DNA of 64,000 bases, from the NCBI RefSeq assembly GCF_046105845.1, contig NZ_CP151004.1. One strand, given 5' to 3'. A program made the position numbers and the translations under genes. The notes beneath the pieces were generated by a model. It did not search any database. It saw only the letters and a program-made list of their open reading frames with translations, and had not been told where the DNA came from. Positions 25,354 through 25,665 of the stretch are shown piece by piece; position 1 is the first letter of the stretch, and the number at the start of each line of letters is the position of its first letter. The DNA is from Escherichia coli (GTDB lineage Bacteria; Pseudomonadota; Gammaproteobacteria; Enterobacterales; Enterobacteriaceae).

Positions 25354-25665
25354 TTGGTTATACTCGTCATGCTTCAAGTTGCATGTGCTGCGTCTGCGGG
25401 TTATTCGGCCCATCCATGGGCCTCACCCCTTACGGGGCCGCTGAAAGCAGCGTTCAAATCCGCTCCATGCGGATTTGTCGTTCAGCCCAGTCACTTACTT
25501 ATGTAAGCTCCTCGGGATTCACTTACTTGCTGCCTTCCTACAAATCGAATTATTTAGAGTATATGATATAAGTACCCACAGCTAAAATTATAAACGAAAT
25601 ATCTTTATATTCACGTAAGTTATGTTATGGATTGCATCATTATAAATTATTTTTAAACGCAGGGA

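Follow-up and report, generated by a model that had tools for sequence, protein, structure and literature searches.

The window, by which we mean the whole analysed stretch of 64,000 nucleotides from Escherichia coli, carries topB followed by an Hsp70-family gene, both on the + strand, and the intergenic region between them holds a terminator-like hairpin and, beginning 7 bp after it, a stretch rich in palindromes. The Hsp70-family gene and its J-domain gene neighbor occupy the place of ynjI in K-12; the proposal that K-12 YnjI might be the remnant of a J-domain protein was rejected, as no similarity was found. The palindromic stretch belongs to a known class of elements, being a long-form ERIC repeat. 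More fully, positions 25359-25563 very probably represent a 205-bp long-form ERIC (IRU, RU-1) repeat with a nested 78-bp homologue of the core of tRNA-linked repeats (TLRs), the whole being a non-coding passenger. A first-pass annotation had placed a structured span at 25380-25530, which is real but misses both ends of the true unit. The features of the region are as follows.

25320..25352, + strand: terminator-like hairpin AAAGCCAATGGT...GCCATTGGCTTT, then ATTGGTT; 21 bp past the topB stop; −18.9 kcal/mol, z −4.4
25359..25563, + strand (orientation of the published consensus): composite ERIC/IRU/RU-1 miniature inverted-repeat element, 205 bp, defined by alignment and alleles
25359..25398, + strand: left arm of the ERIC; carries the terminal TA and, at 25359-25365, the terminal inverted repeat TATACTC
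25399..25476, minus strand as the likely RNA sense: 78-bp internal insert, homologue of the TLR/RtT/RrB core; boundary accurate to about 1-2 nt
25477..25563, + strand: ERIC center and right arm, including the hairpin CTTAC-TTAT-GTAAG (25494-25507) and both copies of TCACTTACTT
25557-25563, + strand: terminal inverted repeat GAGTATA at the right end
25501-25522, + strand: ERIC1R primer site, 1 mismatch
25479-25500, minus strand: ERIC2 primer site, 2 mismatches

The ends of the element were set by alignment with the topB-Hsp70 junction of strain 536 and with the copy between preT and yeiS. Both termini are 7-bp inverted repeats with 5'-TA-3' at either end, as is required of a member of this family, and comparison of empty with filled sites at topB-Hsp70 and at preT-yeiS reveals a TA on both sides of the element, as expected from the target duplication of TA that is known for ERIC (PMC2229807). 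Without the insert the core amounts to 127 bp, of which 112 agree with the RU-1 consensus of E. coli and 114 with the Salmonella SeRU-1 sequence (88-90%), both reference sequences being taken from Table 1a of PMC2759123. The two primer sites of ERIC-PCR (primer sequences from PMC5938721) are both present, and GTGAATCCCGAGGAGCTTACATAAGTAAGTGAC, the minus strand of 25490-25522, is the center of the ERIC repeat. Dispersed copies were verified at six different intergenic loci, and a query that contains the ERIC matches a median of 6 places per genome; within the 64-kb window itself no further copy was found at ≤3 mismatches. The predicted structure of 25359-25563 exceeds chance on either strand: the calculated fold reaches −70.1 kcal/mol (z −4.6; 1 of 200 shuffles as good) on the + strand, and −77.3 kcal/mol (z −5.5; 0 of 200 shuffles as good) on the minus strand.

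All palindromes, hairpins and repeats named in the first-pass annotation were found in the sequence, with a single coordinate slip of one base. The central hairpin CTTAC-ttat-GTAAG and the 10-bp direct repeat TCACTTACTT, whose second copy was correctly given as 25519-25528 and whose first lies at 25491-25500 instead of 25490-25499, turn out to be standard ERIC features, while the other four hairpins belong to the internal block. Among these are the perfect palindrome GGCCCATccATGGGCC (25407-25422), the hairpin CCCC-ttac-GGGG (25426-25437) and the inverted repeat CAAATCCGC-tccat-GCGGATTTG (25455-25477), all three as described. The compound outer pairing that had been drawn around the last of these, GCTGAA/TTCAGC (25440-25445 with 25481-25486), is present here but in this copy only, the other copies reading TCGCTCACC; the pairing conserved across copies is the small hairpin GCTG/CAGC. 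The dispersed ERIC repeat, which is the main answer, did not figure among the four options offered at that time (structured sRNA, decayed tRNA, attachment-site remnant, recombination scar).

Of 5426 complete E. coli genomes, about 361 carry the Hsp70 gene, and three allelic states coexist at this junction. In the 270 genomes that could be typed, the site is empty in about 117, holds a short, 127-bp ERIC in 132 and the long, 205-bp form in 21, and all 21 long alleles, an example being that of Ecol_316 (NZ_CP018957), are 100% identical to the window over 25300-25760. The allele of strain 536 comprises exactly 127 bp at the same locus, without the insert. Empty alleles (L011, L012) read ...TTTATTTATTATGATATAA..., as against ...GGT-TA[ERIC]TA-TGATATAA... 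in the filled state, so that TTA|TGAT of the empty site corresponds to TA[...]TA. The topB terminator-like hairpin is common to empty, short and long alleles. The same Hsp70 cassette is also present where the site is empty, so the element can be neither the cassette junction nor something the cassette needs, and the suggestion that it is an attachment site or recombination scar finds no support. Its supposed position at the upstream junction of the cassette does not hold either, because homology with K-12 ends already within the 3' end of topB, near 25214, about 145 bp upstream. The same sequence at this position in genomes without the cassette had been named as the finding that would turn the element into ordinary intergenic sequence; K-12 lacks both the cassette and the element's sequence at this position, and the observation is not overturned in that way. 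The first layer is thus a 127-bp ERIC that inserted at a TA, 7 bp past the topB terminator hairpin, in an intergenic region that is variable among strains. With three allelic states here and at preT-yeiS and with both ERIC-PCR primer sites in place, the element makes a useful strain marker.

The second layer is the block itself. Compared with the short form, the formal difference is a 79-nt block, 25399-25477, that stands for a single T. The 78-bp block proper (25399-25476) is flanked by ...TCTGCG and TCGTTCAG and occupies a fixed position in the left arm (...CTGCG^...^TCGYTCA). It folds, on the minus strand, into four consecutive hairpins and a tail.

25455..25477, minus strand: hairpin D, CAAAUCCGC-AUGGA-GCGGAUUUG; GGA in the loop; stem as in the K-12 rrnB T1-T2 spacer
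25439..25452, minus strand: hairpin C, CGCUG-CUUU-CAGCG; helix 1, 98% of cells paired, both-side changes in 4 of 5 pairs
25425..25438, minus strand: hairpin B, G-CCCC-GUAA-GGGG-U; GNRA-type loop, G.U closing pair in 40 of 73 distinct sequences
25407..25422, minus strand: hairpin A, GGCCCA-UGGA-UGGGCC; GGA in the loop; helix 3, both-side changes in 6 of 7 pairs; the palindrome noted at first pass
25399..25406, minus strand: module tail GAAUAACC; its counterpart is GAGUAAUCC in RtT and AUAAAC in RrB

Of the 5426 genomes, 648 contain the block, as a rule in a single copy and without exception at full length, and every copy inspected lies inside an ERIC, in the same position and orientation. Near-identical long forms occur at preT-yeiS, argP-rpiA, gyrA/mandelate racemase, yehL-yehK and yajO-dxs; in the copies at argP-rpiA and gyrA the right arm contains a further, diverged block of this kind, again at a fixed site (GGGGATT^CACTC). 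The preT-yeiS locus repeats the situation at topB in that empty (AAA-TA-AAT), short and long states exist side by side, and the short allele of strain ECO_1_S equals the long allele of T-HYM1 over all 403 bp compared, except for T versus the 79-nt block, with the same junction as at topB. The presence and absence of the block on an otherwise identical haplotype points to its clean and recent gain or loss. Slippage deletion between direct repeats was rejected as an explanation, as no direct repeats flank the insert and a T replaces the 79 nt. Across loci the inserts share a mean identity of 95.6% and the ERIC cores 91.7%; the two measures co-vary, and since insert and core identities track each other, the figures do not decide between gain and loss. 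In the layered scheme proposed here, the 78-bp module would be gained or lost precisely at the fixed left-arm site of the ERIC, be it via some site-specific process or via gene conversion between ERIC copies. Long ERICs as such had been described before: inserts some 70 bp in length, at particular places within the element, were reportedly noted by Sharp in 1997, by Cromie, Collins and Leach in 1997, and by Wilson and Sharp in 2006.

To find relatives of the block, each species was represented by one genome and scanned for GTTCAAATCC GC-N3-7-GCGGATTTG, the hairpin D pattern. It was encountered at 102 loci across Proteobacteria, and in three further settings the approximately 75 nt around it have the four hairpins in the same order. 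In many Enterobacteriaceae the module resides in rRNA operons, 3' of the 5S rRNA gene, which in K-12 is the rrnB T1-T2 spacer that encodes RrB. The second setting, seen in Thiogranum and further gammaproteobacterial MAGs, is immediately 3' of a tRNA-Gln or tRNA-Ser gene and always in the orientation of the tRNA, and two of the Thiogranum copies exceed the gathering score of Rfam RtT (45 bits) with 47.3 and 46.5 bits. In Thioalkalivibrio, Rhodanobacter, Halothiobacillus and others, it appears in multi-copy dispersed repeats, inside unrelated palindromes. The rRNA and tRNA settings have been recognized as one family, the TLRs, with 22 members in K-12, each repeating exactly, at its own 3' end, the last 18-19 bp of the tRNA or rRNA that precedes it; the TLRs of rrnA, rrnB and rrnD are the small RNAs RrA, RrB and RrF, which bind Hfq and CsrA in vitro via GGA motifs in their loops (PMC8144298).

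Covariance models of the module were built in three rounds. The first, R1, covered hairpins C-B-A and the tail and was seeded with 8 non-enteric dispersed copies; it scored 19.7 bits on the window (25399-25455, minus strand), 36.2 on the rrnB spacer and 12.4 on each RtT repeat, the first of these values resting in part on the GAAC linker, whose four positions, the first of the model, had been imposed by the search pattern. With the linker dropped from the same narrow 8-sequence seed (R2), the insert reached 12.8 bits, which at a window-wide E of 0.13 is not significant, and ranked below a chance match at 39915-39965. After the failed test of R2 it was replaced by a broader model, R3, composed of 53 copies from non-ERIC loci only, without hairpin D or the linker. 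Here the insert attains 30.0 bits (E ≈ 5e-5) as the sole match in the window at E ≤ 1, and on the minus strand only; the rrnB spacer scores 50.1 bits, the three E. coli RtT repeats 20.1 bits each (E 0.012), other ERIC-embedded copies 22-42 bits, and tRNA-linked copies outside the seed 19-29 bits. Module alignments made with MAFFT were rejected, since hairpins C and A fell out of register between groups, and an 8-sequence seed (A7/A9) followed by re-alignment to the model was used instead. In that alignment of 74 distinct sequences, which was fitted to the model, 93.4% of the cells are paired, versus 70.5% in shuffles and 35-44% with slid partners, and both-side changes, again in the alignment fitted to the model, occur in 13 of 16 pairs.

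Judged by sequence and covariation, the ERIC insert is thus a homologue of the TLR core, sharing its core sequence and structure as captured by R3. The definition of a TLR excludes it, for it neither lies beside a stable-RNA gene nor ends in a copied 3' end: its neighbors are topB and the Hsp70-family gene, ARAGORN detects no tRNA or tmRNA in the 64-kb window, and in place of 18-19 bp of identity to a stable RNA the module tail runs into ERIC sequence (CGCAGACGCAGC, minus strand). Searches with Rfam over 24800-26200 at E ≤ 10 returned sub-threshold matches only (AaHKsRNA22, Qrr, isrH and others), with none for RtT (RF00391), whose gathering score of 45 bits was not reached; that no Rfam family attains its gathering score on the element speaks against the reading given here. 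A literature search brought up no paper that connects ERIC inserts with TLRs, RtT or RrB, although Rudd 1999 or the notes of 1997 may record the link, and a search with the hairpin sequence yielded only vector listings of the rrnB terminator.

Several lines of evidence point to the minus strand of the window as the probable sense strand of the family, among them its orientation relative to tRNA and rRNA genes, the Rfam near-match, the one-strand matches of the models and the GGA motifs, which only this strand presents in hairpin loops, namely those of D and A (AUGGA and UGGA). G.U outnumber A.C cells by 54 to 13, likewise in favor of the minus strand, with 40 of the 54 stemming from a single pair. 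Consensus scans of 25200-25800 for promoters and terminators gave no + strand promoter and no terminator, the topB hairpin having been skipped by virtue of its loop of more than 8 nt; one minus-strand promoter-like site was obtained, downstream of the element, and none that would transcribe the minus strand of the module. A locus-specific function is considered unlikely in view of the + strand orientation of both neighbors, the lack of such a minus-strand promoter-like site in the scanned region and the presence/absence polymorphism, and from the latter we infer a passenger without function specific to this locus. At most, as a very stable fold lying between the topB terminator and the start of the Hsp70 gene, it may affect how stable crossing transcripts are or how far they read through, a possible side effect of the kind reported for ERIC in Yersinia.

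Among the alternatives, a cis-acting role survives best, although it is unlikely. The ERIC with its insert, situated in topB read-through transcripts or in the 5' UTR of the Hsp70 gene, would then set mRNA stability or processing, as is reported for Yersinia, where an ERIC co-transcribed with flanking genes changes mRNA stability through an RNase E site in an orientation-dependent manner (De Gregorio 2005, cited after PMC2229807 and PMC10969869). The very stable + strand fold (−70 kcal/mol) and the position between the topB terminator hairpin and the start of the Hsp70 gene fit such a role, but the terminator-like hairpin lies upstream of the element, no promoter was located in the scan of 25200-25800, and the same cassette occurs with no, a short or a long ERIC, which renders any effect dispensable.

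More doubtful is a functional sRNA gene at this locus, that is, a minus-strand, RrB-like transcript that binds CsrA and/or Hfq through its GGA loops, and we regard it as very unlikely. The structured sRNA of the first-pass annotation is partly borne out, in that the family of the 78-bp insert shows strong covariation and the insert is homologous to RrB, a transcribed RNA whose GGA loop motifs mediate in vitro binding to Hfq and CsrA (PMC8144298); the loops AUGGA and UGGA exposed by hairpins D and A, and the 54 to 13 ratio of G.U to A.C cells, conform to this picture. In the window, however, the putative RNA would be antisense to both flanking genes, which are encoded on the + strand, its own strand shows neither an upstream promoter-like nor a terminator-like site, the module is found in only 21 of the 270 genomes typed at the junction, and one pair contributes 40 of the 54 G.U cells. 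Furthermore, the 19 TLRs of tRNA operons score below 0.01 for predicted CsrA binding (PMC8144298). A decayed tRNA or integration remnant that marks the acquisition of the Hsp70 cassette deserves hardly any credence: the T-loop-like motif GTTCAAATCC (25452-25461) is indeed present, the module family is linked elsewhere to the 3' ends of tRNA and 5S rRNA and the region is strain-variable, but the motif is one strand of a 9-bp hairpin stem, neither ARAGORN nor Rfam (even at E ≤ 10) finds a tRNA, the K-12 breakpoint falls inside topB near 25214, near-identical elements sit at five unrelated loci, and the cassette genomes with an empty site have already refuted it.

The long-form ERIC as a passenger remains the preferred reading, and for the window itself it is of little consequence, being a known selfish or neutral repeat. 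Once it is recognized, the stretch will no longer be mistaken for the relic of a tRNA, for an sRNA gene or for the scar left by integration of the cassette. Beyond the window, the TLR core appears to have homologues in the "70-bp inserts" of long ERICs, which is to be taken as a lead and not as a result. It is conceivable, if rather doubtful, that the block is an ancient, self-contained structured module (the TLR core) that is precisely gained and lost, either as a tiny site-specific nested element or as a recurrently captured RNA domain, common to TLRs, the small RNAs of the rrn operons and long ERICs. Should an active process lie behind the clean presence and absence of the block on haplotypes that are otherwise the same, it would become possible to test where ERIC inserts and TLRs come from.

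The sites at which the module resides may be compared along these lines. In E. coli RtT and in six elements linked to tRNA-Gln or tRNA-Ser, it is found in the T-loop of the copied tRNA 3' half (GGTTCGA^...^ATCC...CCA), and in rrnB within the copied 5S 3' end (GAGTAGGA^...^ACTGCCAGGCAT); the other sites are the two fixed positions in ERIC and unrelated repeats of palindromic make-up in Thioalkalivibrio, Rhodanobacter, Halothiobacillus and a Pseudodesulfovibrio MAG. On this reading each copy of the module is lodged in a hairpin of its host sequence or in a T-loop-like ...GA^A(U/C)C... site. Going by the sequences, the block interrupts a T-loop-like ...GA^A(U/C)C... in TLRs, in the rrnB spacer and at the second ERIC site, which provides a lead and not a demonstrated mechanism.

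With regard to known systems, the Correia or NEMIS elements of Neisseria (107-bp and 155-bp forms that differ by a 50-bp internal segment; PMC2229807) offer a parallel in organization, as they too are small inverted-repeat elements that end in TA and come in short and long forms by virtue of one internal block, while their sequence is unrelated and their internal block is not known as a separate structured module. AaHKsRNA22 (RF02902, Aggregatibacter sRNA 22) is the best Rfam match and displays the same order of four hairpins on the minus strand; at 25.3 bits versus a gathering score of 39.8 the insert is not a member, and this RNA is probably a distant relative in Pasteurellaceae. The TLRs (RtT of tyrT, RF00391; RrA, RrB and RrF of rrnA, rrnB and rrnD, PMC8144298) share with the insert the hairpins D-C-B-A and the tail, and in RrB the stem of hairpin D is identical to that of the insert; in contrast to TLRs, the insert comes without their 5' part (GGAUGAGAA...GGUUCGA), is embedded in an ERIC and is antisense to its neighbors. 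From ERIC the element has the 127-bp core in the form of an imperfect palindrome, the 7-bp terminal inverted repeats, the TA duplication, and the intergenic and dispersed occurrence; it departs from the ERIC consensus in its 78-bp internal insert and in its arms, which are closer to the Salmonella-type SeRU-1 than to the consensus of E. coli K-12. There is a likeness, too, to the long ERICs mentioned above, with which the element shares the size of the insert, its fixed internal site and its good folding, the argP-rpiA and gyrA copies adding the second fixed site in the right arm.

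The cleanest evidence on how the 78-bp block behaves comes from the preT-yeiS interval (loci L118, L002 and L119), where three states, namely empty, with the 127-bp ERIC and with the 205-bp ERIC, reside on near-identical haplotypes. The short and the long allele are identical across all 403 bp compared, the block itself excepted, and from this sequence alignment the alleles appear to record its precise movement or removal.

At the locus of the window, the analysis yielded the following features in the vicinity of the ERIC and beyond:

near 25166-25170 and 25208-25214: breakpoints of the topB mosaic, from sequence comparison
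25745-29375: Hsp70-family gene and J-domain/SEL1-repeat gene (649 aa), at the site of K-12 ynjI
37858-37905, plus strand: weak module-model match, 9.4 bits with covariance model R1
39915-39965, plus strand: weak module-model match, 14.6 bits with covariance model R2
49738-49780, minus strand: ES036 (CssrF) sRNA, 38.9 bits against an Rfam gathering score of 37.6

Similarity to K-12, and likewise to many other lineages, ends within the coding region of topB, in its 3' part (window 24900-25299), and thus the variable segment starts within topB and not at the ERIC. As judged by these comparisons the 3' end of topB is a mosaic, and the C-terminal tail encoded in the window differs from that of K-12 (...KKSPPADEVGSGAIA). 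The intergenic stretch 25300-25760 (461 bp) is 100% identical to that of 21 genomes, whereas the 3' end of topB and the 5' end of the Hsp70 gene reach just ≈ 97-98% identity to Ecol_316, the best of those 21 (window 24900-26500). This combination of an identical intergenic stretch with divergent flanks may reflect either a recombination mosaic at the locus or a source genome absent from the collection. The counterpart interval topB-gdhA of K-12 (L004) holds ynjI in place of the Hsp70 and J-domain genes; the pair, whose Hsp70 member is annotated as HscC in some records, occurs in ≈ 361 of the 5426 E. coli genomes, and no similarity was found between the J-domain protein and K-12 YnjI.

ES036 was the sole Rfam match exceeding its gathering score in the whole window. 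The two weak module-model matches at 37858-37905 and 39915-39965 are probably due to chance, because they are absent with the broader model R3 at E ≤ 1.

In the argP-rpiA and gyrA ERICs (L005, L006; strains E2348/69, CM2 and MINF_1A), the right arm holds a second, diverged copy of the four-hairpin module (L005 1617-1690; also L006), inserted at GGGGATT^CACTC in the orientation of the first copy. It scores 35-42 bits, above the first insert, and its hairpin D carries compensatory changes (CAAATTCGT/ACGAATTTG). The yqfE_argP intergenic region of K-12 ranks among the top CsrB/C-like predictions (PMC8144298, Table 2). Next to it lies argP-rpiA, the interval in which a doubly inserted ERIC (L005) is found in other strains.

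The module also sits within differing host palindromes, among them GCGAGTCCGG/CCGGACTCGC, CCCTCA.../...TGAGGG and inverted repeats of 18-32 bp, in multi-copy families of Rhodanobacter, Thioalkalivibrio, Halothiobacillus and a Pseudodesulfovibrio MAG (loci L024-L036, L049-L051, L065-L071, L076-L082 and L017-L020) and of one further genome, which has nine copies (L105-L113). Model searches of multi-copy genomes returned extra module copies with a different hairpin D.

In the tRNA-linked repeats (TLRs), the module interrupts a copy of the 3' part of the upstream gene (L117, L116, L044, L046, L047, L048, L052, L061). The tRNA-Tyr T-loop is split as AAGGTTCGA^module^ATCCTTCCCCCACCACCA at K-12 tyrT (L117), six tRNA-Gln/Ser-linked elements read GGTTCGA^module^ATCC...CCA, and the 5S 3' end at K-12 rrnB (L116) reads GAGTAGGA^module^ACTGCCAGGCATCAAAT. 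One published description of the TLRs noted solely the 18-19-bp identity at the 3' side, not the split copy (PMC8144298).
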